From positions 41,516-105,515 of IMG/VR virus record IMGVR_UViG_3300006151_000005: 64,000 bases of DNA; one strand, given 5' to 3'. The translations under genes were made by a program, and so were the position numbers. The stretch's first letter is position 1. Each line of letters opens with the position of its first letter. The notes under the pieces are model-generated. The model did not search any database. It was given only the letters and a program-made list of their open reading frames with translations, and was not told the DNA's origin. Shown one piece after another: positions 2,704 to 59,805 of this stretch. Origin of the DNA: a virus. Its lineage: Duplodnaviria > Caudoviricetes.

Positions 2704-3511
2704 AGCCTTTGCCGGTTACGGCAGTCAGTCGATGGCTCTTGAACGCCTCAAGCAAGACATCGGGCTTGACTACACGGTTGTCGGAATATCCGAAATCGAT
2801 GCCACCGCAATCAAGGCTTACTATGCAGCCCGCGATGCCGAGTTGCTGTCACGTTGCCGCACAGTCGGCGATGTGGAAACCGCCATTAGGGGGGGGTACG
2901 AGCCTCCACAGGAACTTATCGACCGATACCCGAATTATGGCGACATCTGCAAAATCAACTGGGCGAATGTGCCGGATTTCAATCTGTTCACATACAGCTT
3001 TCCTTGTACCGACATCAGCAATGCCGGCTTACAGAAAGGACTCGCCGAGGGGTCTGGCACAAGGTCATCGCTTCTTTGGGAGTGCGCAAGGGCAATCGAA
3101 ACCAAATACCCCAAATACCTCTTGATGGAAAACGTCAAGGCTCTTGTAAGCGACAAATTCATGCCGGATTTCAAGCGATGGGCGATGTATCTGGAAAGCC
3201 TCGGTTACACGAACTATTACCAAGTGCTGAACTCAAAAGATTATGGCGTACCGCAGAACCGCGAGCGTGTCTTTATGGTCAGCATCCACGGCGAGGCTAT
3301 CTACTATTTCCCCAAACCCTTCAAGTTAGACCGCCGCCTCAAGCACGTATTGGAAACGAATGTAGATGAAAGCTACTATCTGTCTGATGCTAAGATTCAG
3401 GCAATCATAGACCATTGCGAGCGTAAGCAAGCTGAGGGTTGTGGCTTCAAGCCGAACTTCCAAAACGGGGGGGTATTGCGGAACCATCACCGGGAACTAC
3501 GGACAACGTGA
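2681..3511 (+). CDS. DNA C5-cytosine methyltransferase, N-terminal catalytic part (motifs I-VIII)
   Basis: FAGYG (I), SFPC (IV), ENV (VI), PQNRERVF (VIII). Contains G8 (2889-2896) and G7 (3467-3473). Confidence 0.9.
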   Translation: MEKITVFEAFAGYGSQSMALERLKQDIGLDYTVVGISEIDATAIKAYYAARDAELLSRCRTVGDVETAIRGGYEPPQELIDRYPNYGDICKINWANVPDFNLFTYSFPCTDISNAGLQKGLAEGSGTRSSLLWECARAIETKYPKYLLMENVKALVSDKFMPDFKRWAMYLESLGYTNYYQVLNSKDYGVPQNRERVFMVSIHGEAIYYFPKPFKLDRRLKHVLETNVDESYYLSDAKIQAIIDHCERKQAEGCGFKPNFQNGGVLRNHHRELRTT

Positions 3512-4991: not shown

Positions 4992-5729
4992 ATGCTTGAC
5001 GGCATAAAGCTCCCAGAATCGGTCATCGCCGAAATGGAAAAGCGAGGGATAAGTGCAAACCCCATACCCATAAAGCCGATGATTGACACCGGCATCCACT
5101 TCAAGAAGCGCGAACCAATGCGTGAACGCGACCTGTCAACAGAAGAATTTCTCAACCTGTTCGACAAGGCCGAATCACTCAAGATGGCGTATGTACCACA
5201 CTTCATTACGCAGTGCGTAATCTACTATCTTGACTTATTTGTGGAATATGCCCGCGACTGTCGGCTTTCAGACTTCAAGAAGCACACCCGGTTGCTCAAG
5301 GCAATCAAAGAGGAGTATCTTGCAGCCCTACGCCATGAAATGCCGCCGCACGTCTTTGAGAAATTCCTTACACAGCGCGATGAATACCTTGTGTCATGCG
5401 GCGCAAATCTGAGTCTTATGTATTTCACATTCGGAAATCAGATTTTGAAGAAATATGGCCGGATAGACCACGAAGCCCTATACTGTTACGCCAACATAAT
5501 CCTTGCTTTCATCAACTACGTGGAAGACTTTGACCGCAACGTCAACAAGCGTATCGCAGAAAAGCTGGGGATGCCCTGCCGTAATCACGGAGATGCGCGT
5601 CTGACCGCCATTAAAGGCGTATGCAACGACATCATCAAACCCTACCCGCTGGAAAAGAACAATGACACCGAGCTATGCGTCGGCGTAATGGCAAACAAAG
5701 CGGTCATAATGATAAACAACATGCTATAA
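4992..5729 (+). CDS. hypothetical protein
   Basis: Long ORF coupled to the upstream stop. Confidence 0.6.
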   Translation: MLDGIKLPESVIAEMEKRGISANPIPIKPMIDTGIHFKKREPMRERDLSTEEFLNLFDKAESLKMAYVPHFITQCVIYYLDLFVEYARDCRLSDFKKHTRLLKAIKEEYLAALRHEMPPHVFEKFLTQRDEYLVSCGANLSLMYFTFGNQILKKYGRIDHEALYCYANIILAFINYVEDFDRNVNKRIAEKLGMPCRNHGDARLTAIKGVCNDIIKPYPLEKNNDTELCVGVMANKAVIMINNML

Positions 5730-7433: not shown

Positions 7434-8443
7434 TGGGAAGATACACGGCAAATTGCAGATGTGGCGGTGTGGTAGTCATCAGAACCAACAACGCTTTTCG
7501 CGTACCGGAACTGCTTACAAAGCATGGATGGCGTTTAATCGACCCATACAAAAGCTCCTACGATATTAAAACCAACTGGCGATGCCCTATGTGCGCGGCA
7601 GCTTACGAAAGTCTAAAGAAAGGAAAACTGATATGAAAGAACGTGTATTTTGCGACCTTGAGGGTCTGGCAGGCGTAAGACGGCGTAAAGTCGGTGCATA
7701 CGCTATTACGGAAGCCGATGCGTTGCAGATAAAGTCTATACTTGAAAGTAAACACGCTTGCACATCCGCAGGCAGTTATGGCGCAATCAATATCTGGAAG
7801 ACTGATGCCGGCGAAATTCGCGGCGAAGCCATGCAGAACCTTTGCTCCCTTGAAGTGTGCATCTTCGCCACCTACGCAAAAGCCGCAGAATGGGCGCAGA
7901 AATGGCTTGACAGGATAAACGGCAGAGATATAGTGGAAACGTCTTTTGACGAACCTAACTACGCTTTTAAGCGCGACGTGGAACGTATTATGATGGCTTC
8001 GCGTAAGAATATGCTTGATGCTTTCTGTACGGCGGTCTGCAACAACTGGCAGAACCATGACGGCAACGGCAACCCATGCCCTCGGAACTGCTGCCCTAAA
8101 TTCAACAAATTCGTAGAGCTGATAAAGACCACGCCTATACGTGGACTGGAAACAACCGAAGCCAAAGAAGCTGTAAACAAATACATCAACGACAATGAAC
8201 CCAGAAAGTGAAGAAATCCGTAAAACGGCCATCAATAACCTTTTGAACGCCGACTCTTTTGTCTGCGTCACGATAAAGAACGGAAGCCTGAATATGGCAA
8301 ATCTGACCAATCCGGAACGCCTCGGAATAATGCTGCTTGAAATCATGCGCAGCAATCCGGCTTTCGCCAATAGCGTCAATCTTGCTGCCCTCGCCTATGC
8401 GCAGGAACAACTACACCATAACACAAACCTAAATCAGCAATAA
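7433..8443 (+). other. three small coupled hypothetical CDSs (7433-7636, 7633-8211, 8195-8443)
   Basis: Abutting or overlapping start-stop chain. Confidence 0.55.
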
Positions 8444-23295: not shown

Positions 23296-23368
23296 CGCGG
23301 GTTGGAGCAGTTGGAAGCTCGCCAGTTTAACTTGCTGGAGGTCGTCGGTTCGAGTCCGACACCCGCTA
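23296..23368 (+). tRNA. initiator-type tRNA with anticodon AAC (reads GTT)
   Basis: Cloverleaf: CGCGGGT/ACCCGCT acceptor with C1xU72, GAGC/GCTC D stem, CCAGT-TTAACTT-GCTGG anticodon arm, GTCGG-TTCGAGT-CCGAC T arm, A73. CCA not encoded. Confidence 0.9.
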
Positions 23369-23396: not shown

Positions 23397-23768
23397 ATGA
23401 AAAAGTTAACCCTACAAATTGACAAAAAGTGCTTTCAGGCAATTCTGAAAGGCGAGCAGAAAGTCGAGCATCGGAACGTGTATCCCAATAACGCCAAGAA
23501 GTATGTCATCGAAGAAGACAAGACTGATGAAAACGGCGAAGCCATCACGGTTGTAACACCGGTTCACTACGATGCCCTCACCCTTATCAATGGTCGCCGC
23601 AAGGATGCGCCCCGTCTGACCGTGGAGGTCGTATCGGCTGAATTTGTCGTACTGACCGACGAAGACGGCAATGATTTGACCTTTGAAGAGAATGGCGAAG
23701 TGTACTATGTTTGTCAGGTATGGTACACCCTCGGAAAGGTTCTTGAAACCGCCAACATCAACGAATAA
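23397..23768 (+). CDS. ASCH domain protein
   Basis: LTLQIDKKCFQAILKGEQKVEHR (GxKxxExR-like), YDAL.LINGR. Confidence 0.7.
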   Translation: MKKLTLQIDKKCFQAILKGEQKVEHRNVYPNNAKKYVIEEDKTDENGEAITVVTPVHYDALTLINGRRKDAPRLTVEVVSAEFVVLTDEDGNDLTFEENGEVYYVCQVWYTLGKVLETANINE

Positions 23769-23795
23769 TCATTAACCCTTTAACACTATAAGTGA

Positions 23796-23996
23796 GTTAG
23801 ACGTAGAATTGATAACAACTATGGCCCCCGTCGGAACATGAACGGTGCCGGTGCCGGTGGCCGACTCGTAGCCCGTCGCACCCCTGCGGGCGTAGTTGCT
23901 GGTCGTAGCCAGCTCGGAAATCGTGAACAGCGTCGCGCTGACCTCCGCGCAGCCTTTGCTGACCAAATCCGCGCCGCTGGTGGAACAACCGGCTAA
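23796..23996 (+). CDS. 66-aa Arg/Gly-rich protein, probable GTT start (not in ORF track)
   Basis: TGA-GTT-AGA-CGT-AGA...TAA after an A/C-rich leader; internal ATG at 23838. Confidence 0.65.
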   Translation, partial: VRRRIDNNYGPRRNMNGAGAGGRLVARRTPAGVVAGRSQLGNREQRRADLRAAFADQIRAAGGTTG

Positions 23997-25766: not shown

Positions 25767-26222
25767 ATGAACTACCGATTTTTAAGCAGCATAACCGACG
25801 CGGAGGTTGCGGATTTTCGCAACAGGCTCGCGGCTGAACTGGCGACACGCATGACCGGCGACGGCAAGCGTGTTATCAGTGACGAGGCCATCGGGCAGGA
25901 GGTCAACCTTAACATCTCCACGGAAGATGCGAAGAAATATCTGCAAAGCAACGACGCGGAGAATTATGACTACGCGCAGCTTGCAGACGTTATCGCGGCC
26001 AAGTACCGCACATTCAGCGATGAAGACATCATGGCCACGCGCAAGGCGATGGTCGATAAATTCATGGCTCTTGCCGATGAGTATGGCTGGGATAAAGAAC
26101 AGGCACGACGCGATGCCAAAAAGGAGTTTTACGACAACCTTTCTGACGGAACTATCCTTGAACTTCTGCGCAATGGCGAGTCGATTGAGGATTATGTCGA
26201 ATATGTAAGTATTTACGACTGA
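25767..26222 (+). CDS. hypothetical protein with its own promoter (moron-like)
   Basis: TAACTTTG promoter and operator-like site at 25715-25737. Confidence 0.55.
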   Translation: MNYRFLSSITDAEVADFRNRLAAELATRMTGDGKRVISDEAIGQEVNLNISTEDAKKYLQSNDAENYDYAQLADVIAAKYRTFSDEDIMATRKAMVDKFMALADEYGWDKEQARRDAKKEFYDNLSDGTILELLRNGESIEDYVEYVSIYD

Positions 26223-26228
26223 TAGCGA

Positions 26229-26915
26229 GTTAAAAAGCCACGTAAGACAGATTATAACGCGAGAGTCACAAAGGCACTCAAGGGAAAGGGCGTACCTCAC
26301 CTTGAAGAGCCGATGTACCGCGTATCCGCGTCGGCTTTTATAAAGGCTATAAGACGCGGCAAGGCATCGCAAGGCAGGAACGGCTGGATGGTTGACCTGC
26401 ATAGCAAAAGCGAATACAAGCGGATGCGATGCTTTCTTACTCCGGACGGAAAGACAGGTGTAGCGATAAAACGCGATGGGGATGTAGTGTCTGTATTCTC
26501 CACCAGCGGAAAACGAGGCGCAATGGCAAAAATCATACCGTTTGCGGTCGCTAATGGTGGTCGCAAACTGGATTGTTATGCTTTCTCGGATGGCCGCAGT
26601 TCACTTCACAACATGTACGGAAGATTCGGCGCAAAGGCTCACGGCAAAATGACCTTTGACCCGCAATATAATCCTGTTTTCCAACGCACGGCGCAGGCCA
26701 ATCCCGGTATGCGCAGACCCTCTCATGTCGTGGCGATGACGCTGCCGGGCAGTCTTGCCGGTGTCATGCGGGCTTACAACGCTGACAGGAAGATTGACCT
26801 TGGGCGCGTGAGGTCGTATAATGATTACGACAAGATGATGGATGACCGAAACGCGCATCTTGCACTACGCGGAAAGTCAAGCGGTGTCAGAGGCGCACTT
26901 GGCGGCGGTAAATAA
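26229..26915 (+). CDS. basic protein with possible GNAT-like domain, probable GTT start
   Basis: TAG-CGA-GTT-AAA, in frame with ATG 26313; DGKTGVAIK.DGDVVSVFS, GGRKLDCY, LHNMYGRFG. Confidence 0.6.
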   Translation, partial: VKKPRKTDYNARVTKALKGKGVPHLEEPMYRVSASAFIKAIRRGKASQGRNGWMVDLHSKSEYKRMRCFLTPDGKTGVAIKRDGDVVSVFSTSGKRGAMAKIIPFAVANGGRKLDCYAFSDGRSSLHNMYGRFGAKAHGKMTFDPQYNPVFQRTAQANPGMRRPSHVVAMTLPGSLAGVMRAYNADRKIDLGRVRSYNDYDKMMDDRNAHLALRGKSSGVRGALGGGK

Positions 26916-27690: not shown

Positions 27691-27978
27691 GTTAGACGCA
27701 GACGTACACCATCAACAAGAACTATGGCATACTACACCGGTAGCTATGCAGACCAGAACATGATGTCACCATACGGAATGGGATATTCTCAGTCACAGGT
27801 GGCAATCAACAATCGCGCACAGGCTCTCCGTCGTCGTGTTGGCGATATGAACGTTTCATCATCCCAACGGCAAAGGTATTACGATATAATAGGCCGAGCC
27901 AATGGCAATATGTTTCAGGCAATAAGAACTGCAACGGGGGGGCAAATGACCACTTCCCAATTAGGTTATGCGTGTTAG
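27691..27978 (+). CDS. small basic protein, probable GTT start (VRRRR...)
   Basis: ATA-GTT-AGA-CGC-AGA, in frame with ATG 27724; N-terminus parallels the 23796 ORF. Confidence 0.55.
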   Translation, partial: VRRRRTPSTRTMAYYTGSYADQNMMSPYGMGYSQSQVAINNRAQALRRRVGDMNVSSSQRQRYYDIIGRANGNMFQAIRTATGGQMTTSQLGYAC

Positions 27979-28038
27979 AGAACCGGTCATCTCGCCGTCA
28001 CATGACGGAAATAGCAAGTTCGACTCTTGCACACGCAG
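27969..28038 (+). ncRNA. tRNA-like element with 4-nt anticodon loop (ACAT)
   Basis: TGCGTGT/ACACGCA, GAGA/TCTC, CCGTC-ACAT-GACGG, GCAAG-TTCGACT-CTTGC. Confidence 0.7.
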
Positions 28039-28069
28039 CATAGAAGATTAAAATTTCATTATCACGACG

Positions 28070-39341: not shown

Positions 39342-39551
39342 ATTCTTGGTCTTTAATTGTTGTTTAACTTTGATGATGCAAAGATATAGGATAAAATCTA
39401 TATCTCAAAATAAATTATAGGGTAAATTCTATTTCTTAACAAAGATTAACAATAGGTTAAACTCTATGCTTTAATTAAAAATATAGAATATAAGTTGTGA
39501 GTTTAATTATTTCTTCTTAACTTTGCGCCGTAAAATTATAGAACAAACCCT

Positions 39552-40660: not shown

Positions 40661-41941
40661 TCATTGTTGTTTGATTTCAGCAGTCACGCCGTCAGTGCCG
40701 GTCACGTCTGCCGGATTAATCGCTTTCGCGGAATCGGGATTTTCAACAGCCATCGACAATTCTAAATCGCAGAAGCCTTTGCAAGCTCCGCGATAGCCGT
40801 TGAAAAATTCAATGGCGGTCATGCGTCGCTTGTTCGGCATCTGCAATTCAAGCACGGAAATAAGCTCGTCGCCACAGGCGATGTATAACTTGCGGTCTTG
40901 CCAGAACAACTCGCCGGGTGCATGATAGCCACGCGGTATGCCGGTCTTTTCCGTCTTGAATATCTTGACGCTTATTGCCTGCTTTCCAAGCATTGCCAGC
41001 GAAGTCCATGCCGATGGGATGGGCGTAAGTGCGCGTATGAAGTCATAGACGTAATTGGCAGGCTTGAGCCACGGAATGATGCAGTCCTTTCGGTGTAGCT
41101 TCGGCGCGTAGCAGGGCTGGATGAAGTCGCAGATAAGCTCCGATTGTGGGATGGGTCTGCAAGAATGGGCTATGCGCTGAATTGCATCGTCCATCATTTC
41201 CGCACCGGCTATGCGCAATTTGATGTGAACGTCTTCCGCGTTGTCATCCTCATCGATGCCGATGGCGAGATTGTTGATGATGCCGCCAGTATCGATTTTG
41301 TCTTCAAGCATGAACGTAGTCACGCCGGTCATGCTGTTACCGTCCTTGATAGCGGATGCGATGGTGGAAGCACCGCGATACATGGGCAGCATGGACGAAT
41401 GGAGATTGATTGTTCCCCACTTCGGAATGGTGTATAGCGCACGTGGCAGTATTCTGAACTCCACCACTACGCCAAGCGTAGCATGAAGATTGTGGATGTG
41501 CCGCAGAAACCTGTTGGAGTCGAGCTTCCGTGGCTGAAAAACAAGGATACCCATAGACTCTGCATAGACCTTGACCGCAGACTTGCGCACGACCTTTCCG
41601 CGACCGAAGGGCTTATCCTCCATCGTTACCACGGCGGCGACATCATAGCCGCGCTCTACAAGTATCTTGAGGGTTGGTAGGGCGAACTGTCCGTTTCCGA
41701 AAAACACGATGCGGATGCCCTTCCGTTCTACCGGCTTGGACGAGTCGTATTCCGGATAGGCTACGATTTCCGTTTCATCAGCAGCCGTGTAACCGCCATT
41801 ACGCAGACGCACCAAGTATGAGCCATCTTCTACCGGGTATAGAATCTGACCCTGACTTAGTATTCCTTTGTCTTCATTCGCGCATAACAGGCTTGATGGA
41901 ACTTGTACCGATTGCCCTACGCGATAGATGGGCGTTTTCAT
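40661..41941 (-). CDS. fmt: methionyl-tRNA formyltransferase-like protein with extra ~75-aa N-terminal domain
   Basis: RIVFFGNGQFA, DKPFGRG, INLHSSMLPMYRGA, IDTG, YAPKL, IRALTP.PSAW, ELQMPNKRRM..IEFFNG. Confidence 0.9.
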   Translation of the reverse strand: MKTPIYRVGQSVQVPSSLLCANEDKGILSQGQILYPVEDGSYLVRLRNGGYTAADETEIVAYPEYDSSKPVERKGIRIVFFGNGQFALPTLKILVERGYDVAAVVTMEDKPFGRGKVVRKSAVKVYAESMGILVFQPRKLDSNRFLRHIHNLHATLGVVVEFRILPRALYTIPKWGTINLHSSMLPMYRGASTIASAIKDGNSMTGVTTFMLEDKIDTGGIINNLAIGIDEDDNAEDVHIKLRIAGAEMMDDAIQRIAHSCRPIPQSELICDFIQPCYAPKLHRKDCIIPWLKPANYVYDFIRALTPIPSAWTSLAMLGKQAISVKIFKTEKTGIPRGYHAPGELFWQDRKLYIACGDELISVLELQMPNKRRMTAIEFFNGYRGACKGFCDLELSMAVENPDSAKAINPADVTGTDGVTAEIKQQ

Positions 41942-55183: not shown

Positions 55184-55214
55184 CGTAGAATACTTAAACC
55201 CCAAACTACATCCA

Positions 55215-55961
55215 ATGAAAGCTAAAATCTTTGCAAAACTAAAACAGGAGTATTCCTCTCTTGGGTTAGGCGATGAATATCTGATGTCAAAAGCCGATTC
55301 CCTTGCAGCGACCGGTCTTGTGACTGACGATAACATCGATGCTGTCGTGGCTTGCCAGCGTAAGGAGCTTGAGGGTCTTCAGAAAGCCAACGATAAGCGC
55401 GTCACTGATGCGCTTGAAAAAGAGCGTAAGAAGCATGAAGAAGAAACTCGCAAAAAGGAGCAGGAAGCCGAAGAAGCCCGTCGCAAAGCCGAGGAAGAAG
55501 CCGCCGCCAAAAAGAAAGGCGAGCATACCGACCCGGTTACAAACCCCGACGTTGAAGCCCTCCGCAAGCAGGTGGAAGAGCTGACCGCCGCCGGCAAGAA
55601 GCGCGACGAAGAATATGCGGCCAACCTGAAAACGCTTACCGAATCACGTGACAGTCTTGGAAAGCAGGTCAAGGAACTTGTTGACAAGAACGCCGCATCG
55701 GAAGCAGCCGCAGCCAAGGCAGCACGCAATGCGATGATAATGGCGAAAGCCAAAGAGTTGGGCGTTCCCCAGTGGCGTATCGACGAGGGCTTCACAATCG
55801 CGGAAGACGCGAGCGAGGAGGTCATCACCGAAACGCTGACAAAGGTTGCGAACAATATCAACACAAACATCCTGCCGGGTAGTCGTGGCGGATTCCCCCT
55901 CGCCGGCAACGAGCCGACTAAGGAAGACCTCGCTTCGATAGCTGCAAGCCTTGTTAAGTAA
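55215..55961 (+). CDS. capsid scaffolding protein
   Basis: Charged coiled coil at the start of the head operon. Confidence 0.65.
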   Translation: MKAKIFAKLKQEYSSLGLGDEYLMSKADSLAATGLVTDDNIDAVVACQRKELEGLQKANDKRVTDALEKERKKHEEETRKKEQEAEEARRKAEEEAAAKKKGEHTDPVTNPDVEALRKQVEELTAAGKKRDEEYAANLKTLTESRDSLGKQVKELVDKNAASEAAAAKAARNAMIMAKAKELGVPQWRIDEGFTIAEDASEEVITETLTKVANNINTNILPGSRGGFPLAGNEPTKEDLASIAASLVK

Positions 55962-55983
55962 CAACTAAACCCCAACGAGAATT

Positions 55984-56430
55984 ATGAAAAATGACATCTC
56001 ACCCAACAAGGAAACGGTTGTCTTCGGTAATGATTCCTCAGTAATCCGCAAGTACATTGCCGGCATCGCCGGTGGTCGTACACTGGACTGCTCGGATTTT
56101 GTCGATGACACTGTTCTCGCCGGCCACGTCATCATCAAAAAGGCCGACGGAAAGTATGCCCCGATGCCCGTCATCGCGGCTGTTCCCGCGAAGCCCGCAC
56201 AGGGCGAAAACCCTACTGTTGCGGCTCAGCCCGCCAAGTACGGCACACTCCCTACCGGCGCATCCTACGCCGGCGTTCTCTATCGCTCAATCAGTAAGAA
56301 AAACCCCGCTGCTTCCATTATGACGATAGGTATTGTCAATCCCGACATGACCCCCTATCCCATGACAGACATCCTGACCGCGTTCACGGCTGCCTGCAAA
56401 ATTTCCTTTGAAAAGGACGAAGAAGCATAA
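55984..56430 (+). CDS. head decoration protein
   Basis: Between scaffold and capsid; GGRTLD, AGHVII, GVL. Confidence 0.6.
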   Translation: MKNDISPNKETVVFGNDSSVIRKYIAGIAGGRTLDCSDFVDDTVLAGHVIIKKADGKYAPMPVIAAVPAKPAQGENPTVAAQPAKYGTLPTGASYAGVLYRSISKKNPAASIMTIGIVNPDMTPYPMTDILTAFTAACKISFEKDEEA

Positions 56431-56445
56431 AAACCGAGTATCTGA

Positions 56446-57534
56446 GTTAAACAGTCATTCTATTTCGATTACGCGCAGAAATACTTCCCCGGCCTCGTTC
56501 TGGCCGTGGTTGAACGTCTGAACGAAAAGCGCAACAACTCCGCGCAGACGTATCTCTACAAAGAGAAACTTCGCCCCCAGTTCTCGCTTGATGGTCGCTG
56601 GGCTTCCATTCTTGCCGAATACACCCGTGTAGCCGCCGACGTTGTGGCACTTGACTCCGAGCTTCCGCTCAAGAGCCGTGACACGCTGGAGGTTGCTTCC
56701 GGCACTATCCCCAAGATAGGTATGAAGCTCTACCTGACCGAAAAGCAGATGAAGGACGTTGATTCGATGATTGCACAGGGTCTTCCCCTTGAAACCATCA
56801 TCAACAACATATTCGCCGACACCCCCCGTTGCATCGAGGGCATCTGGGAGCGCATCGAAGACATCTTCCTTTCCGAGCTTTCGTCCGGCGTGGGCATTTC
56901 CGAACGTAACAACGGCACCGGCGTGCGCATCAACATGAACTTCTATGAGGCCAATCAGTTCCTCGTATCGGCTCTGTGGAGCGCAACTACCGCCACACCG
57001 CTTGACGACATTCAGAAAGTCGTTGACAAGTCCATCGAAGACTCCAACACCATCATCGACGCATACGCCGACGATACCGCCCTCCAGCTTCTTTACAAGA
57101 ACGGTCAGGTGCGTGCGCAGTTTGCCTTTGACCAAGGCATCGCCATGACTGCATCAACAGCCATCCCCGTGCTTGACCTTTCCAAGCTCCAGCAGCTTTT
57201 CCTCACCAAGTGGAACATCCGTCTGCACCGCGTTTCGCGCCGTGTGAAGACCGAGCTTAACGGAGTTAAGCAGAACCACAACCCGTGGAAGAAAGGCACT
57301 ATTACCTTTGTCTGCGATGAAGAGCTTGGCTCGCTTGTATGGACTAACGTCGCCGAAGTCAACCGCCGTGTTGATGGTGTAGTCTATCAGGTAGCCGACG
57401 AATACATCCTTGCAAAGAAGTATTCCAAGACAGACCCCCTCCGCGAGTTCACCGCTTCCGAGGCTATGGTTGTCCCCGTGTTGAACAACGTTGACCGTAT
57501 CTATACGCTCGACTCTCAGACCGTTCAGGAATGA
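56446..57534 (+). CDS. major capsid protein, probable GTT start (VKQSFYFDY...)
   Basis: Position and size (362 aa); AADVVALDSELPLKSR, GTIPKIG. In-frame TGA directly precedes GTT; first GTG is 20 codons in. Confidence 0.85.
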   Translation, partial: VKQSFYFDYAQKYFPGLVLAVVERLNEKRNNSAQTYLYKEKLRPQFSLDGRWASILAEYTRVAADVVALDSELPLKSRDTLEVASGTIPKIGMKLYLTEKQMKDVDSMIAQGLPLETIINNIFADTPRCIEGIWERIEDIFLSELSSGVGISERNNGTGVRINMNFYEANQFLVSALWSATTATPLDDIQKVVDKSIEDSNTIIDAYADDTALQLLYKNGQVRAQFAFDQGIAMTASTAIPVLDLSKLQQLFLTKWNIRLHRVSRRVKTELNGVKQNHNPWKKGTITFVCDEELGSLVWTNVAEVNRRVDGVVYQVADEYILAKKYSKTDPLREFTASEAMVVPVLNNVDRIYTLDSQTVQE

Positions 57535-59234
57535 AAGCAACCATCCTCGTACCTTTCCGCGACAAATACGACCATGCAGTCGTGTATGCGCCCGGAGATG
57601 TAAAGGAATTTGACAATGACCGCGCAGTGGCACTGGTCGCTCGCGGTCTTGTCGAACCCCTTGCAGAAGCTCCCAAAGAACCCGAAGAAAAGGCAGAAGC
57701 CGACGCGAAGCCCGCCAAGCCTAAAGGTAAGGGCAAAGGTAAATCCACCAAAAAGGAAAAGGAAGTCGCCGATGCAGCTCCCGAAGCCGATAAGGTAGAA
57801 GCCGATGCCGACACCGAAGCTGACGCGCCCGAAGAAGCAGAAGCCGAAGATTCCAACGATAACGAATAATACCGATGACAATACGCGCTTACATAACCGA
57901 TAAGTTGAAAGCCTACGGAATCACGGAGGCGCAGCTTGTCGATTTGTCTATTTCGTCCGGGTTGAAACTTGACTCCGATGTCATGGATAACGACCCCACC
58001 GCAGTAGGCATTGCACTGACGCAGACGCTTGAGGAGTGCATCCTTGCGCCGCGACTGTCAAGTGTAAGCGAAAGCGGGTTTTCGATGTCGTGGAACTACG
58101 ACTCCGTGGGCAAGTATTACCTTTGGCTTTGTCGTAAATGGGGCGTGACCCCTAACGATGATGTCTTGGGTATGCTTGGCATTTCCACTATTATAGACCG
58201 CACCGATAATTGGTAAAAGCATGTACTACGCACCCCACATATTGCAGAAGCGCATTATCGCCGAGGAGAAGTCGGATGAATTTGGAAGACCTATTCCAGA
58301 AGAAGCTGGCGACTCTTGGGTGGAAGTGTGCCGATGCAGATGTGACCACAATGGGGATAAAGAAGTCAAGATGCCCGATGGCACGGTCGTAACGCCGGAA
58401 TATCATGTTGTCCTTGAGGACAACGAACCGGATATTGAAGTCGGCGATTACGTGCGTTGTCTGAAAGCAGACGGAACTATCCGTGGCGAGGGTCGTGTCA
58501 TTAAGCCGAAAACATTAAACTATCTGCCTTATGCGGAGATCTATCTGTAAGTTTGACTTTAGCGACGTGCGCCCGGCTTTAGCTCGCTTTCATCGTGATA
58601 TGCGCAAACAAGTTGAGCGCGTAGGTCAGGAAGCCGTGGATTACGCAGTTGAGCATGGCGATTACCATGATGTCACCGGCGAAACACGCGCCAGCAATCG
58701 TTACAAGGTTGATGCCAACAACAATCTGACCATCTATAACGAGTGCGACCACGCCGCAGAACTTGAGGCAAACGGCAAAGATGTTATTGGAAACGCGGCT
58801 TTATTCGCAGAACAACGACTTAAAGAGATTTTTGAATGATTACCACCACTGACGCAGCAAACATCCTTTACACCGCCTGCAAAAATATCTTCGGGATGCC
58901 AGTTTATCAGGCCGGCAATATTCCCGCCGGTAAGGTAGGCAAGGATGGTCGCGTAGTTATCCACACCAAAGAGCATAGCCCCGGCTCCACATGGAAGAAA
59001 GGATTCATCGAAGTCAATTTATTTGTCGCTGACACACCACAGGGCAACGCCAATCTAACCCGGCTTAACGAGCTTGAACGTATGGCGACCAAATCCCTCA
59101 AGGATATGGGATGGCATGACGGAACGGCTTACCGCTTTGAAGTGGCTTCTACGATACCGATGGAAAATGTCAATCTGAAAGCCCACTACATTAACACCAA
59201 AGTGCTTTTCAAAGTGCTTAATACAATGGAATAA
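57531..59234 (+). other. head-tail connector and tail completion genes (57531-57869, 57875-58216, 58221-58550, 58531-58839, 58836-59234)
   Basis: Typical size and order between capsid and major tail; SVSESGFSMSW adaptor motif. Confidence 0.7.
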
Positions 59235-59259
59235 TTAACCCCTTAACACCCATACACGA

Positions 59260-59805
59260 GTTGAAAATTCACCTAAAGTTTGCGCAGTAGGCATCAAAAA
59301 ACTGTACTATGCTGACCCCAGCAAAGTGACCGCAGACCTTACCGGCGCACTCCTTGCCGCCCTGCTCAAAGACGCGGCCACAAAGGAGGTCAAAAACATC
59401 CATCAGGACACGTGGACTATCGAGGAAAGCGAGTCGTCGCAGGACGGCTATCGCAACCAGCTTACCGGCTCGATTTACCGCATGGGAACAAAGACAATGG
59501 GCGACGTAACGTTCAACTGGACTATCGGCCAGTACGACTACGCCACTAAAGCCGAGTTCCTTGGTGGTGTAGCTACCGCTAAGTCGTGGAAACGTCCTCG
59601 CGGCATCGTCGAAATCCACAAGACCCTCATCGCGCTGACCGAAGACAATCAGTATTGCGTACTTCCGTATGCCAATATCGCCGGTCGTGAGGCAAACACT
59701 GACGGCGCAGTCGGCATCGGCATCGTCGGCACAGCAATGGAGCCGGAAAACGATGCAGTATCGTCCGAATACTGGTTTGACTCCTCCGAGGTAGTATCCG
59801 CGTAA
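59260..59805 (+). CDS. major tail protein, probable GTT start (VENSPKVCAVGIKKLYYAD...)
   Basis: In-frame TAA at 59236; no in-frame ATG/GTG/TTG until 59326. NIHQDTW, FNWTIGQYD; hairpin terminator ~59842-59872. Confidence 0.75.
   Translation, partial: VENSPKVCAVGIKKLYYADPSKVTADLTGALLAALLKDAATKEVKNIHQDTWTIEESESSQDGYRNQLTGSIYRMGTKTMGDVTFNWTIGQYDYATKAEFLGGVATAKSWKRPRGIVEIHKTLIALTEDNQYCVLPYANIAGREANTDGAVGIGIVGTAMEPENDAVSSEYWFDSSEVVSA

Follow-up and report, generated by a model that had tools for sequence, protein, structure and literature searches.

A phage-encoded, initiator-derived tRNA with the anticodon AAC probably reads GTT start codons in the capsid gene and other genes of a gut phage family

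The major capsid gene of the phage very probably starts at a GTT codon (56446..56448, + strand). A tRNA encoded by the phage, with the body of an initiator and the anticodon AAC (23296..23368, + strand), would decode this codon in the ribosomal P site. Positions refer to the window, the whole stretch of 64,000 nucleotides that was analyzed (positions 41,516 to 105,515 of the IMG/VR record IMGVR_UViG_3300006151_000005, Caudoviricetes). The evidence for the reading of GTT by tRNA(AAC) is comparative throughout, and comes from capsid homologues, the tRNA family, the covariation of anticodons and start codons among related phages, and further genes with the same type of start.

The capsid coding sequence (56446..57534, + strand) consists of 362 codons counted from GTT and ends with a TGA at 57532-57534. 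Another TGA (56443-56445) closes the frame upstream and is directly followed by GTT 56446, which lies 15 nt past the TAA (56428-56430) of the upstream gene. ATG, GTG, and TTG are all absent from the 20 codons at 56446-56505, which precede the GTG used by ORF callers (56506..56508, + strand). These coordinates confirm the initial annotation, which had described a capsid frame opening at TGA-GTT, 15 nt after a stop and without a canonical start. Its assignment of the ORF to the major capsid protein also stands, as the product matches Pfam PF03864 (24.7 bits, cut-off 22.9) and phrog_29 (1.4e-30) and has lambda gpE, an HK97-fold capsid protein, as its best match by fold (Foldseek; 7vi9, 8k39, and 7sj5; E 2e-10); searching PDB sequences with the profile of the capsid gave zero matches, and the fold search was used instead. 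The open 20-codon extension is uninformative by itself because approximately 38% of random stretches of 20 codons are open, and its significance comes from homology.

A protein search with the capsid retrieved 559 relatives. More than 100 homologue clusters with lengths of 361-363 aa place their start ATG exactly at GTT 56446 in the alignment, and distant relatives (61-71% identity; 357-366 aa, mostly 361-363) cover 99-100% of the GTT-extended protein, with the N-terminus M-E-K-S-L-Y-F-E-Y in these homologues corresponding residue for residue to V-K-Q-S-F-Y-F-D-Y in the window. At the DNA level, the comparison covered 15 distinct lineages with 67-100% identity, drawn from isolate genomes, viral contigs, and metagenomes, and all 15 carry GTT where the homologues have ATG. 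In these lineages, the internal valine codon 18 is GTT, GTG, or GTA, and the third base of codon 1 is therefore constrained beyond that of ordinary valine codons. Codons 2-21 contain many synonymous changes but no indels or stops in the 15 lineages (pN/pS 0.43), and the 30 nt upstream of GTT are close to random between lineages. Judging from these substitutions, the 20 codons after GTT are under purifying selection. The initial annotation had taken GTT 56446 as the true start and the 20 codons as protein-like, and had tied this view to the conservation of these codons in homologues; the protein search found them conserved, and both proposals agree with the alignment to ATG-started N-termini and with the pN/pS value.

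The capsid could alternatively start at the downstream GTG 56506, with the 20 codons being an untranslated and decaying remnant of an ancestral N-terminus. The product would then be 342 aa long, which is near the length of lambda gpE, and the first pair in the Pfam alignment is profile position 43 with residue 60 of the GTT-extended protein. However, the downstream start lacks conservation: 12 of the 15 lineages have ATC or ATT in place of GTG 56506, and the first canonical in-frame start is found at codon 16, 18, 19, 21, 22, 40, 54, or 67, depending on the lineage. In L075, L077, and L081, where it is codon 40, 54, or 67, the conserved capsid core would be lost. A decaying remnant is also at odds with 15 lineages free of stops and indels and with the many synonymous changes at a pN/pS of 0.43, and in the structure model residues 5-31 form one continuous N-terminal helix, which a start at GTG 56506 would halve. 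We consider this explanation very improbable, in line with the initial annotation, which had already rejected the GTG of the ORF callers. The closest capsid relatives in public protein sets have at least six different downstream called starts, and such scatter is the signature of a gene caller without a real start to find. An artefact of sequencing or assembly at the GTT is less probable still and can practically be dismissed, as nothing was counted in its favor and the identical GTT context occurs in independent assemblies, among them many metagenomes and the genomes of the isolates Muribaculaceae Isolate-036 (Harlan) and Lepagella muris NM04_E33.

The upstream gene (55984..56430, + strand; 148 aa) had been called a decoration gene, but this label could not be maintained, as the gene has zero Pfam matches and its sole match is phrog_38330, a family of unknown function. 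In the window it shares the frame of the capsid gene, with TAA, four sense codons, and TGA between the two, and the capsid might thus arise as a fusion with the upstream gene, or from it by frameshift or readthrough. Readthrough would have to pass two stops, however, and in relatives the spacing between the upstream gene and GTT is 6, 8, 10, or 15 nt with a variable frame relation, while the capsid gene of L081 follows a different upstream gene altogether. Given such variation, which extends to the upstream gene itself, fusion and frameshift are effectively excluded, and we give this explanation only a minimal chance.

Initiation at ATC 56440, two codons upstream of GTT, has a similarly minimal chance, and would involve a TGA recoded as sense, or AGA in relatives. 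The capsid lineage retains this ATC (-6 to -4) fairly well, and five lineages have ATC AGA GTT without a stop. Yet TGA occupies the intervening position in 8 of the 15 lineages, other genes with a GTT start do not have the ATC, and TGA is the stop codon of 53 of the 119 long ORFs in a genome without signs of recoding. A suppressor tRNA was not found in the phage genome.

The tRNA(AAC) at 23296..23368 was identified by ARAGORN and by Rfam (RF00005, 48.6 bits) and is the single bona fide tRNA of the 105.5-kb phage genome. It has a C1xU72 mismatch, A11:U24, A73, and the anticodon loop UUAACUU, in which AAC is complementary to GUU. In the Muribaculaceae host genomes (G006-G008), its sole full-length relative is the initiator tRNAfMet, and the similarity matches include tRNAfMet only and no host tRNA-Val. 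The two tRNAs are near-identical outside the anticodon arm (acceptor stem, D arm, variable loop, and T arm), whereas the anticodon stem-loop is wholly different. Based on this pattern, tRNA(AAC) is evidently descended from a bacterial initiator tRNA in which the anticodon arm was replaced.

In an alignment of 24 sequences, comprising members of the tRNA family and relatives, 20 of the 21 cloverleaf pairs hold throughout, and compensatory changes were seen at 14 pairs. The 1:72 mismatch, a hallmark of initiators, is found in 24 of 24 sequences (as CxA, CxU, CxC, UxU, or AxA), and the formylation determinants are kept as well, with A11:U24 in 24/24, G2:C71 in 24/24, C3:G70 in 23/24, and an invariant A73. 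EF-Tu needs a Watson-Crick 1:72 pair, and a mismatch at this position is unfavorable for its binding. The unpaired 1:72 together with A11:U24, G2:C71, and A73 therefore forms an initiator signature that is unfavorable for an elongator. An elongator tRNA-Val is matched at A35, C36, and A73 but not at 1:72, which is mismatched in all members, nor at position 37, which is U instead of a purine.

Other features depart from a canonical initiator. The anticodon is AAC and not the CAU associated with methionine charging, and of the three consecutive G:C pairs at 29-31:39-41, which are an initiator hallmark for IF3 and P-site selection, the middle one alone is kept (A29:U41, G30:C40, and U31:G39). A34 is unusual in bacterial tRNAs. 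The loss of two of the three G:C pairs, along with the unusual A34 and U37, would count against an initiator role. In E. coli, the middle G30:C40 pair alone is enough for a tRNA to act as an initiator (PMC5389676). In the relatives with the anticodon GAC, this middle pair is C30:G40 instead.

Several other tRNA-like elements were observed. A second ARAGORN prediction in the window (27969-28039, + strand) was rejected as a tRNA, as it scores below the Rfam gathering threshold; the element combines a good T arm with an anticodon loop of 6 nt, includes the last bases of the gene at 27691, and may be a degenerate tRNA or a remnant of an attachment site. In L022 (G001:15028-15129), a match of approximately 100 nt to the Rfam tRNA model contains a long insertion in the region of the anticodon arm, and ARAGORN makes no call there. 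L143 (10610-10683) is an initiator tRNA of a phage and has the standard anticodon CAU, three G:C pairs, and the same U32 U33 and U37 U38 flanks, indicating that the UU..UU loop is a family trait independent of the valine anticodon. In GenBank phages, the nearest tRNAs among the matches listed were ordinary tRNA-Met (one of the 146 was inspected directly).

A different explanation of the GTT start is that the host tRNAfMet reads it weakly as a near-cognate codon, possibly coupled to translation of the upstream gene, with tRNA(AAC) serving as an elongator or in an accessory role. The native initiator of E. coli supports a low level of methionine initiation at GUU (10.64898/2025.12.21.695813), and the stop of the upstream gene is just 6-15 nt from GTT. 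On the other hand, GUU and CAU form two mismatches, and yet the capsid must be the most abundant protein of the virion. The elongator role would fall to a tRNA with an initiator body and the EF-Tu-unfavorable mismatch throughout its family. Moreover, reading by a host tRNA does not predict that start codons track the phage anticodon (GTC with GAC, GTT with AAC) against codon bias, as described below. We therefore regard this explanation as improbable, although it is the strongest of the alternatives, and favor the reading of GTT by tRNA(AAC).

The tRNA(AAC) is found on the same contig in all eight searchable genomes with a GTT-start capsid, a count made without the metagenome records L073-L081. 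The relatives G005 and G010 have an ATG-start capsid and a sister tRNA with the anticodon GAC. Because the relatives with tRNA(GAC) keep ATG in the capsid gene, the tRNA (AAC or GAC) does not appear to serve the capsid gene alone. A pattern scan of IMG/VR identified at least 106 initiator-bodied tRNAs of this family, and the 80 that were read consist of 64 with GAC, 13 with AAC, 2 with CAT, and 1 with CCT. A small gene is located approximately 430 nt downstream of the tRNA. Among the matches listed, this gene starts with GTC in 35 of 35 GAC loci and with GTT in 8 of 11 AAC loci, the other three having ATG, and the crossed combinations AAC/GTC and GAC/GTT were never seen in these 46 IMG/VR loci, which are largely from related phages and hence represent far fewer independent events than loci. 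GTT accounts for 25% of valine codons in the phage genome itself (G000, AAC) and GTC for 15% in G005 (GAC). The match between start codon and anticodon thus runs against codon bias, which argues against a role of the tRNA in codon supplementation.

Based on the sequence of the anticodon stem, there are at least 3-4 distinct lineages of AAC tRNA. L148 is such an independent lineage, with a tRNA at 5426-5499 that has U1xU72 and a different anticodon stem, and its genomic context is one in which Shine-Dalgarno sequences are used. Two consecutive ORFs on this contig (L148:6937-7698 and 7709-8158) open with TGA-GTT 4-6 nt after the Shine-Dalgarno sequence AAGGAGG, and the first of them is ParB-like and covers the phrog_9353 profile almost from its first residue. 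L156 carries an initiator-bodied tRNA with C1xU72 and the anticodon CCT (2941-3014). A tape-measure-like ORF (L156:3060-3629) opens at TAA-AGG 46 nt past this tRNA and matches phrog_1533 from profile position 200. The AGG ORF may represent a second kind of private start codon or an interrupted gene.

Besides the capsid gene, at least four further genes of the window open at GTT according to the comparison with their orthologues, one of them with weaker evidence. The small gene downstream of the tRNA (23796..23996, + strand; 66 codons) encodes a Gly/Arg-rich protein and opens with TGA-GTT, and its orthologues have TGA-GTT in G003 and TGA-GTC in G005, in which the tRNA anticodon is GAC; the codons ahead of its first ATG are conserved and vary synonymously in sequences down to 59% identity. 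A gene of 228 codons (26229..26915, + strand) opens with TAG CGA-GTT and has its first canonical start at codon 28, while the alignment to the orthologue in G001 (40% identity over 210 aa) begins at residue 1, and this orthologue has a GTT start likewise preceded by GA. In the tail region, a gene of 181 codons (59260..59805, + strand) opens with CGA-GTT, a start kept in G000, G001, and G003, whereas the caller’s GTG at 59326 is not conserved; positions 4-177 of the 178 in the phrog_14600 profile fall on residues 7-180. The gene with weaker evidence is an Arg-rich gene of 95 codons (27691..27978, + strand) with a candidate GTT start, whose paralogues and orthologues open with TGA-GTT and CGA-GTT in G003 and with CGA-GTC in G005 and share the N-terminus V-R-R-[RK]. 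Outside the window, 20.5 kb before its first position, a sixth candidate, the gene of a predicted membrane protein of 83 codons (G000:20981-21232), opens with TAA AGA-GTT and has its first ATG at codon 25; its orthologue in G001 (89% identity) opens with TAA CGA-GTT.

Some candidates were discarded. A GTT at 39368 (- strand) was rejected as a start, since an ATG nine codons downstream is conserved in all orthologues, and this gene serves as a negative control. An all-against-all comparison of stop-to-stop ORFs from G000, G001, G003, and G005 was too noisy, as close genomes conserve every frame, and an apparent match from it, the portal gene (30048), has a clear conserved ATG. Longest-ORF logic selects the antisense ORFs 23772-23966 (- strand) and 25782-26402 (- strand) over the genes at 23796 and 26229 because the true genes on the + strand are without canonical starts, which constitutes an annotation trap.

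The capsid GTT is embedded in a seven-base context of G, A, GTT, A, and A (56444..56450, + strand). The loop of the tRNA, U32 U33-anticodon-U37 U38, is fully complementary to these seven bases if one G:U pair is allowed. In the capsid lineages, A is found at -1 in 15/15, G at -2 in 14/15, and A at +4 in 15/15. Across six gene families with GTY starts, A is present at -1 in 17 of 17 starts and GA in 16 of 17, compared to GA in 2 of 21 canonical starts. The conserved context and its complementarity to the loop suggest an extended codon-anticodon interaction. A separate leader motif, consisting of an A/C run followed by TTAA or CAA (approximately AACCCC, T/A, A), was observed 8-20 nt before several late genes (59233-59256, 23766-23790, 55190-55214, and 55960-55983); it precedes both ATG and GTT starts and is hence not specific to GTT.

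The phage also encodes a homologue of methionyl-tRNA formyltransferase (40661..41941, - strand; 426 aa from ATG 41941). It has the two-domain architecture of Formyl_trans_N (3.5e-28) and Formyl_trans_C (1.1e-17) in Pfam, with an extra N-terminal region of approximately 75 aa, and its best full-length PDB sequence matches are the bacterial Fmt structures 4iqf (6e-45) and 1fmt/2fmt (1e-40). The catalytic Asn, His, and Asp are kept relative to 4iqf, in an N-x-H motif and a K-x-D-x-G segment. The presence of a phage Fmt would fit the formylation limit observed for initiation at GUU by i-tRNA(AAC) in E. coli. The homologue is present in G001 and G003, which have tRNA(AAC), and absent from G005, which has tRNA(GAC) and is 100% complete, indicating that it is not essential to the system. 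A gene with a Cro/CI-type HTH domain (PF01381; 41938-42252, - strand) overlaps the start of the formyltransferase gene by 4 nt in the ATGA style, and the overlap suggests that the two genes are co-expressed. Neither a peptide deformylase nor a ValRS was found in the phage genome (G000).

By analogy to the anticodon-mutant initiators of E. coli, tRNA(AAC) would be charged with valine by the host ValRS through A35, C36, and A73. The charged tRNA would then be formylated by the phage and/or host formyltransferase, which would act on the 1:72 mismatch, G2:C71, and C3:G70, and be delivered by IF2, leaving Val or fVal as the first residue of the capsid protein. The unusual U37 and U38 may in turn pair with the conserved A (-1) and G (-2), which would extend the anticodon interaction. 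Translation of late and structural genes might in this way depend on a tRNA made by the phage, providing a control of timing or a lock on lysogeny, or the genes might be insulated from host nucleases that cut the anticodon arm of tRNAfMet; both purposes are speculative. More generally, this gut phage family likely runs a natural orthogonal initiation code, in which initiator tRNAs with AAC or GAC (and possibly CCU, reading AGG) start chosen genes at GUU or GUC and either make them dependent on the phage tRNA or keep them translatable under attack on the host initiator tRNA. The chosen genes would include those of the capsid, the tail-region protein, and small basic proteins, accompanied by a formyltransferase of the phage in some lineages.

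A natural initiator tRNA with a non-CAU anticodon was not found in a search of open-access papers and preprints, and we know of none. If confirmed, tRNA(AAC) would be the first known natural example, and its use would constitute a natural reassignment of the start codon. The tRNA, the start context, and the formyltransferase would then also provide a ready-made orthogonal initiation system. For annotation, the consequence is that genes with GTT starts are systematically given wrong starts by gene callers, and small ones are missed or placed on the wrong strand. The findings suggest a new mechanism by which temperate phages would gate the translation of late genes or evade defenses that target tRNAfMet. 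Muribaculaceae Isolate-036 (Harlan) and Lepagella muris NM04_E33 are cultured hosts that carry such prophages.

The closest known counterpart is an engineered tRNA, the i-tRNA(AAC) of E. coli from the Jaschke laboratory, which reportedly builds on earlier anticodon-mutant initiators by Schulman and RajBhandary. The engineered i-tRNA(AAC) initiates at GUU only, with Val at 59% and fVal at 30% of starts, and is limited by charging and formylation, which are helped by extra ValRS and Fmt (10.64898/2025.12.21.695813; 10.1101/2021.05.25.445580). The phage tRNA likewise combines an initiator body with the anticodon AAC and the cognate start GUU, and by analogy would be charged by ValRS through the same three bases. 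The formylation bottleneck of i-tRNA(AAC) is relieved by extra Fmt, and the phage carries an Fmt homologue of its own. Unlike the engineered tRNA, the phage tRNA is natural and phage-encoded, keeps one of the three G:C pairs, has U37 and U38 in the loop, matched by a conserved GA ahead of the start codon, appears to be used for a defined gene set, and has a sister version that pairs GAC with GUC.

Compared to tRNAfMet, including the phage tRNA-Met(CAU) of Erwinia phage phiEa21-4, the phage tRNA has the same 1:72 mismatch, G2:C71, C3:G70, A11:U24, and A73 and a near-identical D arm, variable loop, and T arm, but differs in the anticodon AAC, the loss of two G:C pairs, and the pyrimidine at position 37. 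Stop-codon-recoded phages are said to use suppressor tRNAs in late genes (attributed to Borges et al. 2022). As in those phages, a phage tRNA would alter codon reading in late and structural genes and could gate late translation; in contrast to them, initiation and not termination would be reassigned, and internal GUU codons would still be read as valine. The capsid protein itself resembles lambda gpE (PF03864; 7vi9, 8k39, and 7sj5) in its HK97 fold and similar size, but shares only approximately 15% identity with it and differs in an N-terminus that is approximately 17 residues longer and in its non-canonical start.
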